Positions 4,267 through 64,000 of a DNA stretch of 64,000 bases are shown here, piece by piece (the stretch's first letter is position 1; each line of letters starts with the position of its first letter). Below the pieces are notes generated by a model, which was not told the DNA's origin, searched no databases, and saw only the letters and a program-made list of their open reading frames with translations. The stretch is from a virus. Taxonomy: Duplodnaviria > Caudoviricetes. The stretch spans positions 1 through 64,000 of the IMG/VR virus record IMGVR_UViG_3300038443_001477. One strand, written 5' to 3'. Made by a program: the position numbers and the translations under genes.

Positions 4267-4946
4267 ACAAGCCCCGAATCCCCCTGGTTGACGAGGAGGC
4301 CCAGGAGCCGGCCCCGCTGGCGCGGGCCACCGCGGCTCGTCTGCTGGAGGAGGCCGAAGAGGAGGAGGAGCTGTTGCCCAGGCGGGCGCGCCTGGAAAAT
4401 GCGGCGACTGCCAGCCCCGCCGATGTCGTCAAGGCGATGGCCCGGGCCTCGGAGAAGCAGCTCGCGGAGATCACCGAGAAGGGCCTGCCTGCCACGCAGA
4501 AGGTGGTCGACGGGCAGAGCCGTGTCCTCACGCCGGAGGAGATCAACGCGACCTACAACGCGCTGAAGGGGGAGTTCGCCAAGCATGGCCTCCCGCCCTT
4601 CAGCGAGGACCCGGAGCTTTACACCAACTGGAGCACGCGTGAGCCGCCCAGCATTACCGGCTTCTACGACGTGACCGACAGCCGCACGGGCACGCTCAAC
4701 GAGCGCTGGTGGTTCGAGATGCATGCGGGCCCGATGCTCTGGCGACGCTGGATCAATGGCGTGGCACATGTCACGACTGCAACCCTCATGCACGACGAAT
4801 TCATCGACCGCGGCTACGCATGGCGGGGCCTGCGCAAGATGCCTCAGCAGCCCTACCCGGTGCCTCCATACGACCCGCTGCTCTTGCCGAAAGAGGCTCC
4901 GCTTGCGGGCAAGTACGTGCTGCGCAAGGTGGAGCCCCTCTCGTGA
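4230..4946 (+). CDS. hypothetical protein
   Basis: AGGA RBS before ATG 4230; acidic helical N-half, aromatic C-half. Confidence 0.6.
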   Translation: MERHVEQTELPLNKPRIPLVDEEAQEPAPLARATAARLLEEAEEEEELLPRRARLENAATASPADVVKAMARASEKQLAEITEKGLPATQKVVDGQSRVLTPEEINATYNALKGEFAKHGLPPFSEDPELYTNWSTREPPSITGFYDVTDSRTGTLNERWWFEMHAGPMLWRRWINGVAHVTTATLMHDEFIDRGYAWRGLRKMPQQPYPVPPYDPLLLPKEAPLAGKYVLRKVEPLS

Positions 4947-5311
4947 GCGCAGTCCGCTATAGTTCAGCCGCTCTGGCGAGCGGCGCTATCGTCTCCATCC
5001 GCGAGGTGAAGGAGATTGTCCTGAGCGTCGCACCGGGGGAGCCCGATGACCCGAGGCGCGCCCGGAGCTTTCTGCTGTCCTGGTGGGAGAAGGAGCCACC
5101 CTGGGCTAGGGGTCAAGCGGGCTTCACTTCCATCCGGCGGCCCGGCGGCTGGTACTTCATCACCAAGAGGCTCGGCGCCGAAGGCCGCCTCTTGATCGTG
5201 GGCGACGGGGAGAGCGGGCCGCTCCTGAACGCTGACCAAAGCGAGCGGCTTTACACGGCTATGTTCGGGCCGCTCTATGCGGTCCGGCACCTGGAGGAAG
5301 CCAATGCCTGA
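4943..5311 (+). CDS. hypothetical protein
   Basis: GTGA overlap with upstream gene. Confidence 0.5.
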   Translation: MSAVRYSSAALASGAIVSIREVKEIVLSVAPGEPDDPRRARSFLLSWWEKEPPWARGQAGFTSIRRPGGWYFITKRLGAEGRLLIVGDGESGPLLNADQSERLYTAMFGPLYAVRHLEEANA

Positions 5312-5657
5312 GCATGAGAACACGCGCCTCCTTCGGCGCCTGACCCGGGCCGGAGCGCGGGTGATGCATGACAGCGACCAGCACGAGGTGTTGGCGATTC
5401 GGAGTGCGAAGCTGGGGGAGTTTGTGGCGGAAATGGAGCGCGAGGCTCTGCACCGCTTCTTCAGCCTTACAGCGGAAGCGATGGCTCAGGCGTTGCACCT
5501 GAATGCCACAAGAGGGGGCTATGTGCTGCGGGAATGGGTCACACAGCAACTCTTCGGGAGTTGCCGCGACCTGGAGGAGGTCGCGGCACTGATCGAGCGG
5601 CGAAGGGCGGACCAATCGGATCGGATGGAGCGCCTCCGCAGCTTGTTCAGGGGGTGA
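5304..5657 (+). CDS. hypothetical protein
   Basis: GGAGG RBS; last + gene before convergence with lysis cassette. Confidence 0.55.
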   Translation: MPEHENTRLLRRLTRAGARVMHDSDQHEVLAIRSAKLGEFVAEMEREALHRFFSLTAEAMAQALHLNATRGGYVLREWVTQQLFGSCRDLEEVAALIERRRADQSDRMERLRSLFRG

Positions 5658-6171
5658 GGTTCCCCTGGTTCTTCAGGGCTTCCTGAGCCCGCTCGTATTG
5701 GATGTAGCACTGGTCCCGCTCGGACTTGATGGCGGCGGCGAGGGCAGCGTACCGCGTAAGAAGTTCTCCATCGTCTCGATAGAGATCAGCCCCTGTGCAT
5801 CCGTGGTTTTCGGCGGGAGGTCCGGAAGGCTGCGGATGCACGTCGCCGGGTCTGGGGGGCTCTGGACGGAGGGGGCGCTGGCGCAGGCTGCGCACAAGGC
5901 CGGCAACGCGATCAGCAAGGCGTTGGTTCTCTTCACTGGCTTTTCTCCTGTCGGTTTCGGCCGCCTCTTGCAGGTCGACCTCTTTCTGACGCGCGGCCTC
6001 GACGCGCTTCTGCCGCACCTCTGAGGCCACCTTCTCCGCGTGATCCCACGCAGCTTGGACTTTGTCGGCGCTGTGGTTGGATTCGTACCCCCACACAAAC
6101 GCCGCCGCGAGCACCGCCAGCACCAAGGCGGCACGGATCAGGGCCCAGTAGGGCCGGATGGCTTCTAGCAC
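5647..6171 (-). CDS. Rz: inner-membrane spanin (Rz-like)
   Basis: GAGGAG RBS + GTG; N-terminal TM (LIRAALVLAVLAAAFVWG) then coiled coil; follows endolysin. Confidence 0.8.
   Translation of the reverse strand: MLEAIRPYWALIRAALVLAVLAAAFVWGYESNHSADKVQAAWDHAEKVASEVRQKRVEAARQKEVDLQEAAETDRRKASEENQRLADRVAGLVRSLRQRPLRPEPPRPGDVHPQPSGPPAENHGCTGADLYRDDGELLTRYAALAAAIKSERDQCYIQYERAQEALKNQGNLTP
5673..5936 (-). CDS. Rz1: outer-membrane lipoprotein spanin (Rz1-like), embedded in Rz in another frame
   Basis: GGAG RBS + GTG 5936; lipobox LCAAC; Pro-rich mature part. Confidence 0.75.
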   Translation of the reverse strand: MKRTNALLIALPALCAACASAPSVQSPPDPATCIRSLPDLPPKTTDAQGLISIETMENFLRGTLPSPPPSSPSGTSATSNTSGLRKP

Positions 6172-6830
6172 TGCAGTGCTCCTCTCACGAGCTTGGCGAG
6201 CCGCTCGACCTCTTCGATGCCGATGTAGCCGCCGTTGACAACCTTGCGGACCTTGCGCTCGTCGCCGAGCACGTGATCCGGCACCTTTCCCTCCCACCAC
6301 GCAATGGTGAAGTCGAGGGCGAACCAGGGCCCCTCGGCAAGGGTGGGCACGCCGACCAGATCCTGGCCCACTGCATCGCCGACCCAGGCGTAGTTGTCCT
6401 TGAAGGTCATGCCCAGATAAGCACGGCCCGGGTAGAGGGCACCGTCGCCGCTGCCCTCGGGTCCGTTGCCGAAGCGGCCGCTGTAGAGCGCCTCAAAGAA
6501 GGCGCGTTCGTTGCCGGCGAGCTCGTCGGCGCGCTTGTAGAGGGCGGCCCAGCGCGAGCCGATGGGGGCCTTCCCCGCGATCTCCCGGATGCGCCGCGCC
6601 GAATACTTCCCGCTCTCCTTCAGCCGCTCCAGGTACGAGGACTCGTGCAGGATGGTGGTCAGGAAGTCGGGGAGCTCCCGCTCCAGGCCTGCGCTGAAGG
6701 TGCCCTCGTGGATGCCGGCAGCAAAGATCGGGGCGCGGGCCTCCGCGATCTCCTGCTGGCACCCGACCTCGCAGAGAAGGCGGCGCCAGTCGTCAGTGGT
6801 GACGGGCAGCAGCACGGCTCCGCTCCTCAC
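6165..6830 (-). CDS. endolysin, glycoside hydrolase family 19-like
   Basis: FL..ILHES.YL..L.E and Y.GRFGN...GDG..Y.GR.Y...TFKDNY motifs. Confidence 0.85.
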   Translation of the reverse strand: MRSGAVLLPVTTDDWRRLLCEVGCQQEIAEARAPIFAAGIHEGTFSAGLERELPDFLTTILHESSYLERLKESGKYSARRIREIAGKAPIGSRWAALYKRADELAGNERAFFEALYSGRFGNGPEGSGDGALYPGRAYLGMTFKDNYAWVGDAVGQDLVGVPTLAEGPWFALDFTIAWWEGKVPDHVLGDERKVRKVVNGGYIGIEEVERLAKLVRGALQC

Positions 6831-7227
6831 GCATGAAGTCTTCCCAGCCCGGAGGGGGCGGCGGGAACTTCGGCGCGGCCGGCTGCACGATCTGAATGAC
6901 CGCGGCCTGGGGCCGGGACTCGCAGGCCTCCCCGCACGCCTTCTCGCGCTGTCGCCACTCCTGACTGGAGCTGACCAGATAGGCTGTCATGCCAAGGCCC
7001 GCCGCGACTTCGCACATTGTGAGCACCGAGCCCAGCCAGAGCTCCCGCATCTCGGCGGCCGCCCAGAAGGCGAAGCACACCAGCATGACCTGCACCAGCT
7101 CCAGCCGCCAGGGCAAGGCCTGGGTGACGTTGAGCCGGAGCACGCAGGAGAAGACGATGCCGGCGCAAAAGAGGATCGCCAGCAGGTTGACCAGCATGTG
7201 GTCAGTGGGTAGTGTCAGCAGGTTCAT
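6793..7227 (-). CDS. membrane protein in lysis cassette (holin/antiholin candidate)
   Basis: Three hydrophobic segments; between holin-like gene and endolysin. Confidence 0.55.
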   Translation of the reverse strand: MNLLTLPTDHMLVNLLAILFCAGIVFSCVLRLNVTQALPWRLELVQVMLVCFAFWAAAEMRELWLGSVLTMCEVAAGLGMTAYLVSSSQEWRQREKACGEACESRPQAAVIQIVQPAAPKFPPPPPGWEDFMREERSRAAARHH

Positions 7228-7570
7228 TCTGTGCCCCTCCGAGGGTCGTGCGGATGCGGTTGATCGTCCCGGCGACCAGGGCCGGGACGATGAGTTGCGA
7301 ACCTGAGCCCCCGAGCAAGGAGCCGAAGATCAGGTAGGCGCGGTGTGTGGTCCCGGCCCACTCCACAAAGACCGTGCCGAGCGCGGCCCCGAGCAACGTG
7401 GAGAGAGCGACGTAGGCGACGGCGCGGCGGCGCGTCATCATCTTGGCTTGGCCCAGCGCGAAGAGCGAGCCAACAAAGGCCCACAGCATTGCGTAATAGT
7501 CGACGCCGAAGAGCGCGAGCAGGACTTGCGAAGCAGCGGCCACAAAGGCGCCAGTGGTATCGTGATGCAT
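7202..7570 (-). CDS. putative holin
   Basis: 122 aa, 3-4 hydrophobic segments, AGGAGG RBS, upstream of endolysin. Confidence 0.65.
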   Translation of the reverse strand: MHHDTTGAFVAAASQVLLALFGVDYYAMLWAFVGSLFALGQAKMMTRRRAVAYVALSTLLGAALGTVFVEWAGTTHRAYLIFGSLLGGSGSQLIVPALVAGTINRIRTTLGGAQNEPADTTH

Positions 7571-7612
7571 GTGGGTCCTCCTTCTTGGAAATGCGTAGCC
7601 GAGGGCGCTCTC

Positions 7613-8122
7613 TTAACTTCGGTGAATGCCCTTCGGGTCGATGTTGTCGAGGTAGAGCCGGCGGAAGCGCTCCGACCACGTCGAGCGCCATCCAGCGACG
7701 CGACCGCTGTAGACGTTGTATTCCAGGCGCTGTGACAGCAGCCACTGACGCTGCGCGAAGCGATCTCGGAACCACGCCTTCAGCCGCACCCACCAGCCTG
7801 CATCAGCGGCCGGTGGCGCGAAGACCTTGGGGTTCGCTGTTCGCAGGAAGGGCGGTTGCAGTAGCCAGAGCGTCGCCATCACGTTCAGGAGCACATCGCA
7901 TAGGTAGCCGAAGACCAGCAGCACCTTGCCGAGGCTCATCTGCGGGGTCGAGAGCGCCTCCGCGTCGCGCACCATCTCGAGTCGCATGAGGGCGGTGAAC
8001 ATCACCCAGCACTCGAAATGGAACTCCACCAGGGCGGCGGCGAGCATCAGGGCGGCGGCGAGGCCGTGGAAGACCCCTAGATGGGCGAAGAGATCGAAGA
8101 ACAGCAGGGCAAAGAGAATCAC
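7613..8122 (-). CDS. membrane-associated phage hypothetical protein
   Basis: Two hydrophobic stretches; DVLLNV and LDNIDPKG.H pattern common beside fibre/lysis genes. Confidence 0.6.
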   Translation of the reverse strand: MILFALLFFDLFAHLGVFHGLAAALMLAAALVEFHFECWVMFTALMRLEMVRDAEALSTPQMSLGKVLLVFGYLCDVLLNVMATLWLLQPPFLRTANPKVFAPPAADAGWWVRLKAWFRDRFAQRQWLLSQRLEYNVYSGRVAGWRSTWSERFRRLYLDNIDPKGIHRS

Positions 8123-8730
8123 AGGGGCACCTCCTCAAAGGCGGGGGCAACGCTTGCCGGAGCAGCCGCCTTCTGCTCTCGGAAGATGGTGAGGATCGTG
8201 TCGCGGAGCACCGTCTGCCCCTGGTCCACGGTGACCGCGAGCACCCGGGGGTCCACGGTGAAGTCGAGGAGCGTCTGCTGCGCCGCGCTGGCATCGGCCG
8301 CGGTCTGTGCGGCCGCCGAGGCGACAGCCGGATCGCTGGCCGTCTGTTGCTGGAGCATCGCGCGGAAGCCGATGCCGGTCAGTGCGTCGAGGATGTCCTT
8401 GCGGAGAAGACGCATCTCGGGGAAGACTGCGTTCCGGATGTCGTCGATGGTGACGATCTTGACCTTGATTCGGGGCAGGCCCGTCGTGGGGTCGCTCTCC
8501 AGATCCGCCCCGGAGCCGAGCATCTCGGCGTAGAGGACATCGCTCACCTCCACCACATCGGCCGGCATGCGGCAGTCGGGGTTGGGCACAGCGATCAGCG
8601 GCGCCTGGGCATCCGGGTTGCCCTCGGGATCGGGATTCACCCAGGCCGGGTCCGGCACGTCGATGGTGCGGGGACCGTAGAGGTCGGGGTCGTAGAAGCC
8701 CTTGGTGCTGTCGGAGAAGTACTTGGTCAT
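8119..8730 (-). CDS. tail fibre assembly chaperone
   Basis: YFS.ST.GFYD...G......PDP...P.D.VEVS N-terminus typical of Tfa proteins; follows fibre gene. Confidence 0.7.
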   Translation of the reverse strand: MTKYFSDSTKGFYDPDLYGPRTIDVPDPAWVNPDPEGNPDAQAPLIAVPNPDCRMPADVVEVSDVLYAEMLGSGADLESDPTTGLPRIKVKIVTIDDIRNAVFPEMRLLRKDILDALTGIGFRAMLQQQTASDPAVASAAAQTAADASAAQQTLLDFTVDPRVLAVTVDQGQTVLRDTILTIFREQKAAAPASVAPAFEEVPL

Positions 8731-58910: not shown

Positions 58911-59618
58911 GTGACCAATCAACACGTGATCCTTTACAGCGGTGGCATGGACTCCTTCCTCCTCGCCCACCTCTTCCCCGACGCCGCCAAGGTGTACGTG
59001 GATGTCGGCTCCATCTATTCCGCCAAGGAGAAGGCCCACCTCCCGGCCGACGTGATGGTGGAGCGGGGCATCAACCTCGGGAAGTGGGAGCGCTCGGACG
59101 CCATCATCCCGGGCCGCAACGCCTTCATGGTACTCGCTGCCTCGCAATACGGCGACAACATCATGCTGGGGGCCACGGCCGGCGATCAGAGCCGCGACAA
59201 AGACGATACCTGGGCCAACATGATGACTGGCCTCCTCCGCTACATGTACAGCGGCAAGCACTTCGACCCCGAGCGTGACATGAGCGTGAGCCTCCCGATC
59301 AAGGACCTCACCAAGGCGGAGCTCGTGCAGCAGTACATGCGGGCTGGCGGCGCGATGCTCCCGCTCCGCGACACCATCTCCTGCTACCACCCCGAGCACC
59401 TGCACTGTGGCCGCTGCAAGAGCTGCCTCCGGAAGTGGGTGGCGCTGGAATGGAACCGCATTCCGAGTGGCGCCATCTGGGCCAGCGACCCCAGGGACCC
59501 CGCGAACTGGGTGGAGATCGTCAAGACGATCAAGGGTAAGGGCTGGCGCACCCTGAAGGAGGACGCGCAGACGCTCTCGGTGCTCCGCGAGCATGGCATC
59601 GTGGAGGATGCGGAATGA
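58911..59618 (+). CDS. queC: 7-cyano-7-deazaguanine synthase
   Basis: PP-loop LYSGGMDS, IPGRN, C-terminal CY......CGRCKSC..K; no GAT domain. Confidence 0.88.
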   Translation: MTNQHVILYSGGMDSFLLAHLFPDAAKVYVDVGSIYSAKEKAHLPADVMVERGINLGKWERSDAIIPGRNAFMVLAASQYGDNIMLGATAGDQSRDKDDTWANMMTGLLRYMYSGKHFDPERDMSVSLPIKDLTKAELVQQYMRAGGAMLPLRDTISCYHPEHLHCGRCKSCLRKWVALEWNRIPSGAIWASDPRDPANWVEIVKTIKGKGWRTLKEDAQTLSVLREHGIVEDAE

Positions 59619-60190
59619 CAGTGCGTGGCAAGCTCGCCAGCGCAGTCGCGGCGATGTTGACCGAGCTGGGCGAGGACCTGAACCGGCCGGGCCTGCTGGA
59701 GACGCCGGAGCGCGTGGCGAAGGCCTGGATCGAATGGACCTCGGGCAGCAACTACACCGACGATGACATCGCGCGGCTCCTCAAGGTCTTTCCCGAGGAG
59801 GAGGCCCAGGTCGACGAGATGGTAATCGTCCGCGACATCGAATTCTACAGCCACTGCGAACACCACATGGCCCCCTTCTTCGGCACGGCGCACGTCGCCT
59901 ACATCCCGGGCGAGAGCGGGGCCCTGGTGGGCCTCTCCAAGCTGGCGCGACTTGTCGACGTCTTCTCGCTGCGCCTCCAGGTGCAGGAGCGCATCACCAA
60001 CCAGATCGCCGATGCCCTGGAGAAACATCTGGGCGCCCATGGCGTCGGCGTGGTGATGCAGGCCAAGCACTTTTGCATGTGCAGTCGCGGCGTCGGCAAG
60101 CAGGGCAGCAGCACCGTCACCTCAGCCCTCCGAGGTGCGATGCGCCAGGGCTGGCAGCGAGCGGAGTTCTTCTCGCTGTTGAAGCAGTGA
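59615..60190 (+). CDS. folE: GTP cyclohydrolase I
   Basis: GLLETPERVAKA, S.CEHHM.PF.G..HVAYIP, GLSKL.R.V, R.QVQER.T, H.CM..RG. Confidence 0.95.
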   Translation: MTVRGKLASAVAAMLTELGEDLNRPGLLETPERVAKAWIEWTSGSNYTDDDIARLLKVFPEEEAQVDEMVIVRDIEFYSHCEHHMAPFFGTAHVAYIPGESGALVGLSKLARLVDVFSLRLQVQERITNQIADALEKHLGAHGVGVVMQAKHFCMCSRGVGKQGSSTVTSALRGAMRQGWQRAEFFSLLKQ

Positions 60191-61137
60191 TCCCGTGGGC
60201 CAGCACCGGAGCCCGGCCCTGGAGCTTCCGCGCCCTTAAAGAGGGTGGCTGGCTCCACTACCTCGGCTCCTATCACGAGAGAGAGAGCCTTCAAAGAGCC
60301 ATGTTGACACCTGACCAATTCCGCTTCTTCATCGACTCCGGCGCCTTCTCCGCGTGGAGCCGAGGCGCGCAGATCGACCTGGACGAATACATCGCCTTTG
60401 TGAAGGCGAACATCGACCACATCGACTGCTACGCGAACCTCGACGTCATCGCCGGGGAGCCGGGCCGCAATGCCACCAAGGCAGAGAAGGAAGAAGGAGC
60501 TCGGCGCTCCTGGGAGAACTACCTCTATATGCGCGCCGAGGGCCTGGACCCCATCCCGGTCTTCCACGTCGGCGAGGGCTGGTCCTGGCTCCAGAAGATG
60601 CTGGATCACGGCTGCACCTACATCGGCCTCGGCGGCATGGTGGGGAGCCACCTGACGCCGGTCCTGCGGCGCCAGTGGCTAGATGATGTGTTCGAGCGCA
60701 TCACCGACGCCGAGGGCTGGCCTCTTGTCAAGGTGCACGGCTTCGGCATGACAAGCGTCAAGCTCATCATGCGCTACCCCTGGTACAGCGTCGACTCGAC
60801 CACCTGGATCAAGATCACGCAGACAGGCGGCATCCTCTTCCCCGCCTACGACGCCAAGGCCGGCGCCTTCAGCTTCGACCGCACTCCGATGGTGGTCAGC
60901 GTGAGTGACCGCAACCCGAAGCAGACCGCCGACGGCCAGCACGCCAACTCCATGAGCCGCTCCATGCGGCTGCTCTTCGACCGCTGGCTCGCCGAATGCG
61001 GCAAGAGCTACGAACAGGTCCGCGAGCACTACTACCACCGCGCAGTCTGCAACGTGCACTTCTTCAAGCGCGTCAGCGAGGCCGCCGGGAAGCATCCCTT
61101 CAAGAAAGACCGCATCCGCAAACAACCCCTTTTCTAA
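60187..61137 (+). CDS. dpdA: DNA 7-deazaguanine transglycosylase (TGT-like)
   Basis: LGSYH, FIDSGAFSAW, NLDVI, IPVFH.GE, YIGLGG, VHGFG, YPWYSVDSTTW; GTGA overlap with folE. Confidence 0.8.
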   Translation: MIPWASTGARPWSFRALKEGGWLHYLGSYHERESLQRAMLTPDQFRFFIDSGAFSAWSRGAQIDLDEYIAFVKANIDHIDCYANLDVIAGEPGRNATKAEKEEGARRSWENYLYMRAEGLDPIPVFHVGEGWSWLQKMLDHGCTYIGLGGMVGSHLTPVLRRQWLDDVFERITDAEGWPLVKVHGFGMTSVKLIMRYPWYSVDSTTWIKITQTGGILFPAYDAKAGAFSFDRTPMVVSVSDRNPKQTADGQHANSMSRSMRLLFDRWLAECGKSYEQVREHYYHRAVCNVHFFKRVSEAAGKHPFKKDRIRKQPLF

Positions 61138-61147
61138 GGAGCGAGAC

Positions 61148-61669
61148 ATGACCAAGAGCGTCCAGTATTACGAGGAGATGGGCCGCGACCATGCACGCGC
61201 AGGCGCGAAAGCCGCCTCCTTCCCCAGGAGCGGCACGAGCTGGCAGGCCAAAGCCTACTGGAGGGGCCGTGACGCCGAGAATGCGGCGATCCAGGCCCGC
61301 AAGAGCAAGGACCCCGGCCCCGCGCCTGGGACGGCCCCTCGCGGCTCTCTGATGGGCATCGCCACCACGCGGCTGCCGTCGAAAAGCCCGGCGGAAATCC
61401 AGGCACCCAAGGCCTACCTCGACAAGCTGCGCGTCGTCAACTATCCGGCGCTGATGAAGCTGAGCGAGTACTGGCCCGCAGGCGCCAAGGAGCACGTGCG
61501 GCTCCTCGCCATGGACCACAACACCGAGCTGCGCCTCGGCCGGCGAGCGCGCCTGCATCGCGCAATCCGCCGCATGGTGCTGCGTCACGAGCCCTCCCGG
61601 CGCTCGCCCGGCAACTGGGCCGACATCGCCGCGGTGCCGATGTCCATGTCGCAGGCCTCGGCATCGTGA
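61148..61669 (+). CDS. hypothetical protein, N-terminus weakly Rmf-like
   Basis: AAGGAG RBS; YYE.G..HA.AG......P....W...YW.G. Confidence 0.55.
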   Translation: MTKSVQYYEEMGRDHARAGAKAASFPRSGTSWQAKAYWRGRDAENAAIQARKSKDPGPAPGTAPRGSLMGIATTRLPSKSPAEIQAPKAYLDKLRVVNYPALMKLSEYWPAGAKEHVRLLAMDHNTELRLGRRARLHRAIRRMVLRHEPSRRSPGNWADIAAVPMSMSQASAS

Positions 61670-61869
61670 AGATCTACATGGTCGCATCGGCCGTGCCGTC
61701 CTGGATGCGCACCGGATACGGCCACAGCCTCCTCGCGGGCGAGGCCTCAGACCTGCTGATCTCTTTCGAGGAGTTCAAGCGGCCGGGGGTTTCGCTCCCT
61801 GTCACCTCCGAGGTCATGGGCTCCTCCTACAACCCCAGCAAGGCGGACCCCGTGGAGGCCCCCTCGTGA
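61666..61869 (+). CDS. mini-protein resembling TGT/DpdA N-terminal segment
   Basis: MKIYMV...LLISF; GTGA overlaps. Confidence 0.5.
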   Translation: MKIYMVASAVPSWMRTGYGHSLLAGEASDLLISFEEFKRPGVSLPVTSEVMGSSYNPSKADPVEAPS

Positions 61870-62048
61870 GGATCTACCTTGTGCACGCGAAGGCGAACTA
61901 CGCCAGCGCTACCGATGGCCTTGTGAACGCGATGAGAGAGAGAGAGCACCCGCTGACTCTCTACTCTTTTGAGTTCCTGGTGGGCCGCCAGACCCTCCCC
62001 ATTCAAGAAGACCCGAAACCCAAGCAGGAAAGCCCTTCCAATGTCTGA
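61866..62048 (+). CDS. mini-protein resembling TGT/DpdA N-terminal segment (paralogue)
   Basis: MRIYLV...LYSF; GTGA overlap. Confidence 0.5.
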   Translation: MRIYLVHAKANYASATDGLVNAMREREHPLTLYSFEFLVGRQTLPIQEDPKPKQESPSNV

Positions 62049-63141
62049 CAGCAGCATCAACCGCGCCGAATTCCTCCGCGTCGCTGGCCTTGTGCGGCCC
62101 GCCCTGGCTCGCGACAACTACATCCCCTTCCTGACGCACATCGCCTTCGATGGCAAATACGCCACCGCCTTCAATGACATCAGCGCCATCGCTGTCCGCG
62201 CCAAGACGCACATCGAGCGCTGCCTCCCGGGGGAGTGGCTTATCAAGGCACTCCAGAGCTTCAACGGCTCCGAGGTGCTCCTCCAGCAAAAGGACGGCGA
62301 GGTCCTCCTCTCCAGCGGCCGCTCCAAGCTGAAGGCCCCCACGCTCGCCCTCAAGGACTTCCCGCTGGAGTGGCCCGAGGATGGCGACGTCACCGAGATC
62401 ATGCTGAAGCCCGTGGTGCTGAAGGGAATCGAGCGCTGTCTCCTCAGCGTCGGCAACGACCCCACGCACCCCGAGCAAATGGGCGTGACGCTGGAATCTG
62501 TCGACGGCATGGCGGTGCTCTACTCCAGCGACAACTGGACCATCAGCCGCTACGAGACCGACTCCAAGCTGAAGCTCCCTGGAGGCTCGCCGGTCATCCT
62601 GCCCACCTTCTTCTGCGAACAGATCGTGAGTCTGGGCAAGGCCTTCCCCGAGGAGGAGGTCGTCCTCTACGTGCACCCCGGCGCGATCATCGCGGAATTC
62701 GGCATCCAGGCCCGGCTCCTCTCCAAGACGCTGGTCGACCAGGAGCCCGCCGACTTCCCGGCGATGTTCAAGAAGCACCTCAAGGTGAAGGGCAACCTCA
62801 CCGAGGAGCTCGTCAAGATCCCTGACGCCTTCGATGCGGCCCTCCAGCGTTCTCTCCTGGTACTGGGCGCTGAGGAGGATAAGGCGGTGAAGATCGAGAT
62901 CACCGACAAGGGCTTCGACATGTTGAGCGAGGGCATGGGCGAGGCCGACGACCACCTGGAGGCGAAGGATGTCAGCTTCAACAGCCCGGACGAATTCCAC
63001 CTCGACCCGCAGCTTGTGGCCCGCGCGATGAAGACCGCGACGCACATGGGCTTCGGCGCGACCGTGCTCATTCTCAGCGATGCCGCTGCCAACTTTGTGC
63101 ACCTGATCGCCTACTGCACCGGCCCCAAGGCCAAGAAGTAA
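62041..63141 (+). CDS. dnaN: DNA polymerase sliding clamp (beta-clamp-like)
   Basis: 366 aa, three-domain pattern, ATAFN...I, L.L.DFP, L..SD.W.ISR, I.P..F, F.L.PQL. Confidence 0.75.
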   Translation: MSDSSINRAEFLRVAGLVRPALARDNYIPFLTHIAFDGKYATAFNDISAIAVRAKTHIERCLPGEWLIKALQSFNGSEVLLQQKDGEVLLSSGRSKLKAPTLALKDFPLEWPEDGDVTEIMLKPVVLKGIERCLLSVGNDPTHPEQMGVTLESVDGMAVLYSSDNWTISRYETDSKLKLPGGSPVILPTFFCEQIVSLGKAFPEEEVVLYVHPGAIIAEFGIQARLLSKTLVDQEPADFPAMFKKHLKVKGNLTEELVKIPDAFDAALQRSLLVLGAEEDKAVKIEITDKGFDMLSEGMGEADDHLEAKDVSFNSPDEFHLDPQLVARAMKTATHMGFGATVLILSDAAANFVHLIAYCTGPKAKK

Positions 63142-63164: not shown

Positions 63165-64000
63165 ATGTCGTTCTTTTATAACGAGACAAAGGCAGACAAG
63201 CCCAAGGCGAAGAAGGCGGTCAACCGGAAGACAATTCCGATTGCCAGCCTTCAGCGCATGGGGTGCTCAGTCTGCCCGCGAGACAAGGATGACTCCTTGC
63301 GCTCGCCAAAGATGGCGCCGAGCGGGTCGAAGGCGCCATACATTTACCTCCTGGGCCTCTCGCCAAGCCGCGAGGATGACGACGAGGACATCCAGTGGTG
63401 CGATGCGGCGGGCGCCGCCATCTACAAGAAGTTCGGCCGCGACTGGATGGAGAAGGACGTCCGCTCCAACTACATCACGCAGTGCCGGGGCGAGGAGAGT
63501 GTGGCCGCGGTCGAGTGCTGCCGGCCCCGCATCGTCGCCGACATCGAGGAGACACGGCCCCTGGTGATTGTGGGTATCGGGGACGAGGTGCTGCGCTGGG
63601 CGACAGGCATCAGCCCGGCCTCCGCGCTCACGCACCGGGGCGCGCTGTTCGCTGTGAAGATAGGGAACCACACCTGCTGGTACTACCCCATCCTCTACCC
63701 CAACTTCGTGCACAAGAAGGGCGGGCGAAAGAGCGAGTACGAGACGGTGCTGGAGCACGACATCCGCTGGATCAAGCACTATGTCAGTGGCCTCAACTTC
63801 CGCCCCGCGAAGGTGGCAACCAAGCCCTACGACGCGGGGATCGAGATCATCACGGGCACCGAGCCCGGGGACATGCAGCGCCTGGAGGCGGCGCTGGGGC
63901 GCCTTGCCAAGAAGCCCAAGAGCGGCATCGACGTGGAGACGCCCGGGCTCCGCGTGCACATGCAGGCCAACCCAATGTTGCTGTGCGCGGCTGTCGGCAC
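63165..64000 (+). CDS. DNA polymerase, N-terminal UDG-like domain then 3'-5' exonuclease (3' partial)
   Basis: CxxC, YLLG..P...D, CCRPRI..DIE...P.VIV..G; exo I motif GIDVET; runs off window. Confidence 0.8.
   Translation, partial: MSFFYNETKADKPKAKKAVNRKTIPIASLQRMGCSVCPRDKDDSLRSPKMAPSGSKAPYIYLLGLSPSREDDDEDIQWCDAAGAAIYKKFGRDWMEKDVRSNYITQCRGEESVAAVECCRPRIVADIEETRPLVIVGIGDEVLRWATGISPASALTHRGALFAVKIGNHTCWYYPILYPNFVHKKGGRKSEYETVLEHDIRWIKHYVSGLNFRPAKVATKPYDAGIEIITGTEPGDMQRLEAALGRLAKKPKSGIDVETPGLRVHMQANPMLLCAAVG

Follow-up and report, generated by a model that had tools for sequence, protein, structure and literature searches.

Stand-alone relatives of the first DpdA barrel quarter between the dpdA and sliding clamp genes of a Caudoviricetes virus, and their possible role in closing the barrel

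The window analysed here comprises the first 64 kb (positions 1 to 64,000) of the complete 72.6-kb, 65% GC virus record IMGVR_UViG_3300038443_001477 (Caudoviricetes). Two small genes, designated mini1 and mini2, are located in it between a gene for a DpdA-type enzyme and a gene for a sliding clamp. The locus is oriented in the forward direction and consists of queC (58911–59618), folE (59615–60190), dpdA (60187–61137), the conserved hypothetical gene orf173 (61148–61669), mini1 (61666–61869), mini2 (61866–62048) and the clamp gene (62041–63141; phrog_947, E = 2.5e-34). The products of mini1 and mini2 are 67 and 60 aa long. Both genes start with GTG, and each start overlaps the preceding stop codon as GTGA; a GGAGG motif lies 7 nt upstream of the mini2 GTG. 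The ATG start of the clamp gene (62041) forms an 8 nt overlap with the end of mini2, and the clamp is translationally coupled to it. An earlier reading of the letters and open reading frames (ORFs) made without database searches, hereafter the sequence-only reading, had described both mini ORFs and their coupling to the neighboring genes, and both are present as described. The GC-content of third codon positions in the stated frames is 0.90 for mini1 and 0.72 for mini2, compared with 0.87–0.90 for the neighboring genes, and the other frames are unlike these. Pfam and PHROG scans of mini1, mini2 and orf173 gave no family match, and no further mini copies were found elsewhere in the genome.

The dpdA gene starts with the GTG at 60187, which overlaps the folE stop codon. 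The sequence-only reading claimed that the encoded DpdA lacks the typical first strand of the barrel, and this turned out to be wrong. The first 38 residues (60187–60300, forward strand) constitute an N-terminal quarter (strand 1, helix 1, strand 2 and helix 2) fused to the catalytic core (60301–61137, forward strand), which begins at Met39 and comprises barrel strands 3–8 and the C-terminal helices. The core belongs to phrog_887 (E = 2.5e-50). The sequence of the quarter is diverged, yet it aligns with the canonical DpdA N-terminus. In comparison with the related locus L006, its ratio of nonsynonymous to synonymous substitution rates (dN/dS) is 0.08, indicating strong purifying selection. In the AlphaFold2 (AF2) model of the whole protein (mean predicted local distance difference test, pLDDT, 89.8; predicted template modelling score 0.87), eight barrel strands are formed, and the N-terminal segment supplies strands 1–2, with a strand at residues 2–6, a helix at 11–19, a strand at 24–28 and a helix at 29–40 (pLDDT 78–89). 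The window's DpdA, as modelled, thus carries a diverged fused copy of the segment said to be absent.

A sequence search of the PDB with DpdA gave no match. The best Foldseek match of the model was the bacterial DpdA 7ui4 (E = 2.9e-8). VIA-align superimposed model residues 1–306 on residues 40–371 of the Z. mobilis tRNA-guanine transglycosylase (TGT) with a Z-score of 20.8 and a root-mean-square deviation of 3.2 Å over 265 aligned residues. According to the model, the dpdA product is a (β/α)8 barrel of the TGT/DpdA superfamily. In most distant phage DpdAs recovered, a strand-helix-strand-helix start precedes the DSG motif by about 55 residues and follows a canonical pattern, in which a hydrophobic strand with AG at its end is followed by a short helix and then by another strand, terminated by S-[QY]. 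The start pattern that the sequence-only reading associated with phage TGT-like barrels is therefore real. Residues D50 (DSG motif, strand 3) and D203 (strand 8) are invariant both in 28 diverse phage DpdAs (alignment A3) and in the close relatives (alignment A1), and from the motif and strand position we infer their equivalence to TGT Asp102 and Asp280. The zinc motif CXCX2C...H is not conserved in A3, and residues C271, H281, H284 and C288 of the window's protein are conserved within its clade only. Met39 is invariant across A1, fused forms included. A look-up of the 278-aa core protein starting at this residue found no record.

Direct comparison of mini1 with mini2 gives 28% identity and an E-value of 0.034, so the likeness of the two noted in the sequence-only reading is weak if judged on the pair alone; however, both match a family profile built from relatives (E = 6e-17 for mini1 and 1.5e-15 for mini2). 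Comparison of the mini alignment (A2) with the profile of the N-terminal extension (N-ext) of the clade's DpdAs by hhalign resulted in a score of 24.2 and P = 2.4e-5 in the correct register. Column shuffles of the same comparison (n = 200) scored 6.8 on average and 12.3 at most, none of them above about half the real score. Reciprocal hidden Markov model (HMM) matches had E-values of 0.004 and 7e-4, and mini2 was the second-best non-self match of the N-ext profile. At the level of profile comparisons, the minis are shown to be stand-alone paralogs of the first quarter of the DpdA triosephosphate isomerase (TIM) barrel (strand 1, helix 1 and strand 2), and the kinship to a DpdA start suspected in the sequence-only reading is recovered with the N-terminal segment of this clade.

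The distribution of the mini genes was studied in 14 metagenomic relatives (L002, L006, L009–L017, L089, L090 and L092), which together with the window make up 15 clade loci. From one to three mini genes are located between dpdA and the clamp gene in 15 of 15 loci, and the order queC-folE-dpdA-mini(s)-clamp is kept in all of them. Edwardsiella phage vB_EpM_ZHS is syntenic as well, with two equivalent small genes and a nucleoside 2-deoxyribosyltransferase between dpdA and the clamp gene. A profile search of about 70 loci of more distant DpdA clades found no mini genes. Minis were thus found only beside the dpdA of this clade, in agreement with the co-occurrence that the sequence-only reading had proposed to look for. 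Other searches recovered little: a word-based homolog search with mini1 gave three near relatives only, nothing in 50,697 phage records matched either mini in tblastn at E ≤ 1, and no related loci were recovered with the clamp alone as the query. An exhaustive profile search covering 1.84 billion representative proteins yielded 89 clusters at E ≤ 1e-3. Nine sequences among these were inspected, and two of the nine proved to be repeat proteins matched falsely; the genuine members are small, 51–177 aa long, and have the module at the N-terminus. The family amounts to about 85 clusters with intact starts, nearly all of them stand-alone, and includes a natural fusion of two minis (P0028).

Four subtypes, A–D, recur across phages whose DpdA proteins share 53–62% identity. 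Type A, to which mini1 belongs, is represented by one gene in every related locus, those with a quarter-less DpdA included, and mini1 contains no repeat tract. Mini2 belongs to the rarer type D, shared with L016, where its ortholog is located at 6366–6578. Genes near-identical or homologous to mini1 occur in several independent samples, and the identical mini2 protein is on record in six contigs. The dN/dS of mini1 is 0.16 over the first 45 codons and about 1.7 in the tail. The mini genes are real, conserved and syntenic.

The fused quarter itself has been lost or detached repeatedly. It is fused to the core in the window, L006, L009, L012 (ZHS type), L014, L015 and L089, reduced to the second strand in L090, present as a separate ATGA-coupled 41-aa ORF in L016 and absent from L002, L010, L011, L013, L017 and L092. 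The DpdAs of the six quarter-less relatives start exactly at the equivalent of Met39. The state of the quarter varies inside four shallow clades of the core tree, two of them starred and two with weaker support, and the dN/dS of the core stays at 0.19–0.24. In L002, whose DpdA is 83% identical to that of the window, the fused quarter and mini2 are lost and mini1 alone is kept. An open barrel of six strands is not likely to function, so that strands 1–2 would most obviously come from the mini that is kept.

The complex of the DpdA core (residues 39–316) with mini1, the only mini docked, was predicted with both partners supplied as alignments. The interface score (ipSAE) of the pair was 0.84 (0.87, 0.84 and 0.83 in separate runs) against 0.18 for the best control. 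Of the reference pairs, 58 of 80 solved complexes and 2 of 110 mismatched pairs attained this mark, counts that apply only approximately to a prediction made, like the present one, from our own alignments. The docking runs share at least 88% of contacts, with a partner pLDDT of at least 66. Residues 1–6 of mini1 contact core residues 199–205 in strand 8, and residues 30–34 contact core residues 44–50 in strand 3. Mini1 is modelled between the strands bearing D203 and D50, where strands 1–2 belong. The docking shows compatibility of the two modelled partners, not binding.

Two dinucleotide repeat tracts were found in the forward strand of the locus: (GA)5G just after strand 2 of the fused quarter (60277–60287) and (GA)6G inside mini2, upstream of its second strand (61934–61946). 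These are the only dinucleotide tracts of 9 nt or longer in the 64-kb window, and the probability that both fall by chance in the 297 nt of the fused quarter and mini2 is about 2e-5. The Arg codon found in the tracts, AGA, is the rarest and accounts for 2.3% of the Arg codons of the genome. In the 14 related loci, fused quarters or accessory minis contain seven of eight such tracts, and type A genes contain none. Repeat tracts inside reading frames, a feature of contingency genes, are enriched here beyond chance. One tract variant was observed. L094, recovered from another sample, shares 99.8% identity with the window along 1,072 nt, and the single difference is (GA)5G in the mini2 tract, where L093 has (GA)6G, as does the window. 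The 2-nt shorter tract truncates mini2 to 34 aa, before the second strand. In the fused-quarter tract, a slip of +2 or −2 ends the ORF 4–13 nt past the Met39 ATG. As read from the sequence, such a slip would give a free quarter of 40–41 aa and a core that can be restarted. The same arrangement is seen naturally in L016, where a (CT)8 tract lies at the split and, from reading both frames, a loss of 2 nt would restore the fusion.

From these data we lean, with some reserve, towards the explanation that the minis are quarter-barrel subunits that close the DpdA core in trans, and that mini2 and the fused quarter are accessory and switchable by tract slippage. The DpdA barrel of this clade would then be modular, composed of a core of strands 3–8 starting from the invariant Met and of a closing quarter, supplied either in cis by the fused 38 residues or in trans by a mini inserted between strands 8 and 3. 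Mini1 would serve as the constitutive, universally retained quarter, and mini2 and the fused quarter as accessory copies with dinucleotide tracts. Slippage in the mini2 tract would truncate mini2, and slippage in the fused quarter would detach a peptide of 40–41 aa, with the core restarting at Met39. That the minis bind the core in trans and close the barrel, with mini1 as the constitutive partner, is suggested with moderate confidence. Our confidence is lower that the tracts act as switches by which the fused quarter is detached or mini2 is silenced, and that Met39 is the restart codon. Exchange between the quarters we likewise infer. Split-barrel complementation, as put forward in the sequence-only reading, thus gains from the sequence similarity, the co-occurrence and the complex model, but it cannot be derived from a missing first strand, and binding, complementation and effects on specificity or regulation are its predictions.

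A number of observations weigh against this explanation. The DpdA of the window has a complete conserved quarter, so a gap in the barrel is evident only if the quarter becomes detached or if translation from Met39 yields the core as well. Nothing convincing as a Shine-Dalgarno sequence was found before Met39 in either fused or unfused forms. The minis resemble the canonical N-terminal module of distant DpdAs only weakly (hhalign P = 0.0034, right register, reached by 1 of 150 shuffles). An iterated HMM of canonical N-terminal modules retrieved no mini, and hhalign of the minis against the full-length DpdA alignment A3 gave E = 0.1. The minis have no obvious helix 2, and no DpdA with a fused mini-like module was recovered by the exhaustive profile search. 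The docking result could stem from the model's memory of intact TGT barrels, and mini1 was the only mini docked. The tract polymorphism comes from one assembled contig of 1 kb.

Some of these points fit paralogous minis acting as regulators or decoys and not as barrel completers, a role that we consider unlikely. Such minis might compete with the fused quarter and thereby inhibit or time DpdA, bind the clamp or the orf173 product, or poison a host TGT or Dpd-type enzyme. This would agree with the conserved cis quarter already present in the window's DpdA, with the missing helix 2, with the translational coupling to the clamp gene and with the mini tails, which evolve fast (dN/dS 1.7), as arms-race proteins do. 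Pure inhibition is, however, hard to fit to the six quarter-less relatives and the partial one, which keep a conserved core and at least one mini. The docking geometry is that of barrel closure, and no sequence or model evidence for another partner was obtained.

At least four shallow clades have members in which the fused quarter was lost or detached, and the mini copy number ranges from 1 to 3; both are typical of drift in modular genes. Together with the finding of one tract variant only, they could be produced by a neutrally split gene whose equivalent, redundant quarters complement DpdA, the repeats being mutational accidents with no part in regulation or specificity. We regard this origin as quite improbable: subtypes A–D are each conserved across phages with DpdAs 53–62% identical, nine of the ten tracts of the window and 14 related loci fall in accessory quarters, those of the window use the rarest Arg codon, and the universally retained type A has none. 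That the minis are non-functional, arising by chance in GC-rich DNA or as remnants of dpdA 5′ ends or of a nucleoside 2-deoxyribosyltransferase gene, is very improbable and largely refuted. High-GC DNA does yield many spurious ORFs, the minis match no Pfam or PHROG family, and a deoxyribosyltransferase gene is found among the minis of some relatives, but the structured part of mini1 is under purifying selection, the GC signal at third codon positions is frame-specific and about 85 conserved clusters have intact starts. Profile similarity to the N-terminal part of nucleoside 2-deoxyribosyltransferases was not detected (hhalign P = 0.19, no sensible alignment).

DpdA-type deazaguanine modification is a major counter-measure of phages to restriction and CRISPR. 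A barrel completed by exchangeable 40-residue subunits, if true, would provide a concrete handle on the sequence specificity of DpdA. In its core, the enzyme is a typical phage DpdA. Canonical phage DpdA (DpdA1) of Escherichia phages 9g and CAjan and Pseudomonas phage iggy (PMC6884629, PMC7544227, PMC10484667) has the same phrog_887 core, the DSG aspartate, the second invariant aspartate, the que neighborhood and the same predicted function, post-replicative insertion of a preQ0-type base into DNA. Most other phage DpdA loci recovered encode a single polypeptide with one N-terminal quarter. Unlike the window's clade, they have neither stand-alone quarter genes nor a conserved Met at the boundary between the quarter and the core. 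An unusual feature of the window is that DpdA has kept its fused quarter alongside the spare ones. The searched literature on phage and bacterial DpdA contains no mention of a split DpdA or of accessory small proteins.

Bacterial DpdA of the Dpd restriction-modification system (PDB 7UI4; PMC10164549) is a TIM barrel like the window's DpdA. It has been described as monomeric and about 400 residues long, with large insertions and a zinc site of the form CXCX2C...H, and works with the ATPase DpdB (PMC10164549). Unlike the DpdAs of the window's clade, it has no split barrel and no paralogous fragments. Its loop between strand 1 and helix 1 (Ins1) helps to form the DNA-binding surface, and the loop between strand 2 and helix 2 (Ins2) flanks the active site (PMC10164549). 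These are the two loops that a quarter module would supply. Because the loops that follow strands 1 and 2 are on the catalytic face and their equivalents have these roles in bacterial DpdA, different quarters might, speculatively and by analogy, alter the target preference. Extending this, DpdA could be combinatorial and phase-variable, a possibility that we regard as doubtful. Slippage of the tracts would reshuffle the available quarters (fused, mini1 and mini2), the alternative quarters would contribute the two loops on the active-site face between the catalytic strands, and each would confer its own target preference or activity. A single phage stock would then contain mixed deazaguanine modification patterns, which could serve as bet-hedging against restriction and against defences that sense modified DNA.

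Among TGT-superfamily enzymes, the eukaryotic QTRT1/QTRT2 heterodimer (PDB 7OWZ and 7NQ4, both Foldseek matches) also needs a paralogous non-catalytic partner polypeptide. There the partner is a whole second barrel that dimerises with the catalytic one, whereas here a piece of about 40 residues is predicted to join the catalytic barrel. In laboratory fragment complementation of (β/α)8 barrels, e.g., of HisF halves, separate polypeptides rebuild one barrel. The (βα)2 or (βα)4 modules used there resemble the minis but are engineered or inferred ancestral, whereas the split of DpdA seems to be a natural and conserved one that involves several copies and may be switchable. A discussion of quarter-barrel modularity is given in PMC3741200. 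If the proposed closure is true, this clade would offer a living example, and a rare one, of the modularity by quarters from which TIM barrels have been proposed to originate. Phasevarions and other simple-sequence-repeat contingency genes carry in-frame tracts in components of DNA modification, where reversible frameshifts lead to mixed populations. The genes concerned there are those of bacterial methyltransferases or specificity subunits; in the present case a phage carries the tracts, the DNA is modified by deazaguanine base exchange, and what is switched would be a piece of the catalytic fold. If the tracts switch, part of an enzyme fold would be subject to phase variation in a virus.

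The mini genes of the relatives show some additional features. A 177-aa protein consisting of two fused mini modules was found in two independent samples (L090:4001–4534 and L091:221–754), and the DpdA beside it retains only the second strand of the fused quarter. Type C minis (L009:6138–6404, L010:2270–2536 and L011:6628–6876) overlap the clamp gene by about 110 nt in a different frame. Their second strand is followed by a conserved motif rich in Ser and Leu, for which a (CT)n tract codes in some loci. A gene for a 135-aa nucleoside 2-deoxyribosyltransferase-like protein is interleaved with the minis in four relatives (L010:1866–2273, L012:6817–7227, L014:~6497–6931 and L016:6937–7341); no homolog of it was found in the genome of the window.

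The deposited DpdA annotation of phage vB_EpM_ZHS (L001, OM621816) begins at the equivalent of Met39, and an unannotated in-frame quarter of 38 codons with an (AG)6 tract lies upstream of it (L001 3871–3984, corresponding to L012:4962–5075). In low-GC phages, dpdA has one to three extra in-frame tandem N-terminal quarter modules ahead of the canonical one, several with their own Met (L020–L024, L026, L028, L033, L035–L037, L040, L041 and L060; about 150–700 nt upstream of the DSG motif). These tandem modules are the fused counterpart of the stand-alone minis. In the AF2 model of the L026 protein, the tandem array has a pLDDT below 50 and no confident fold. Some distant phages possess two dpdA paralogs close together (L018:5001–6065 and 7175–8227; also L019, L025 and L027, at about 4881–5801 and 5817–6725). 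The C-termini of the 28 phage DpdAs of A3 (61117–61137 in the window) end in a nearly invariant Leu-Phe or Leu-Trp after basic residues. This tail resembles a sliding-clamp-binding tail, and the clamp gene lies 0.9 kb downstream.

The orf173 product matches the ZHS protein ZHS_64 (E = 3.6e-18), and its dN/dS is relaxed (0.61). The gene separates dpdA from mini1 in roughly half of the clade. By eye and unscored, an ORF with a similar N-terminus occupies this position in L002, L006, L012 and L016; ORFs are present there in L011 and L014 too, and none in L009, L010, L013, L015 and L017. Downstream of the clamp, the gene at 63165–63998, which runs off the window, encodes a family A DNA polymerase with an N-terminal domain of the uracil-DNA glycosylase superfamily (PF03167, E = 1.2e-5), and the same architecture is seen in L090.

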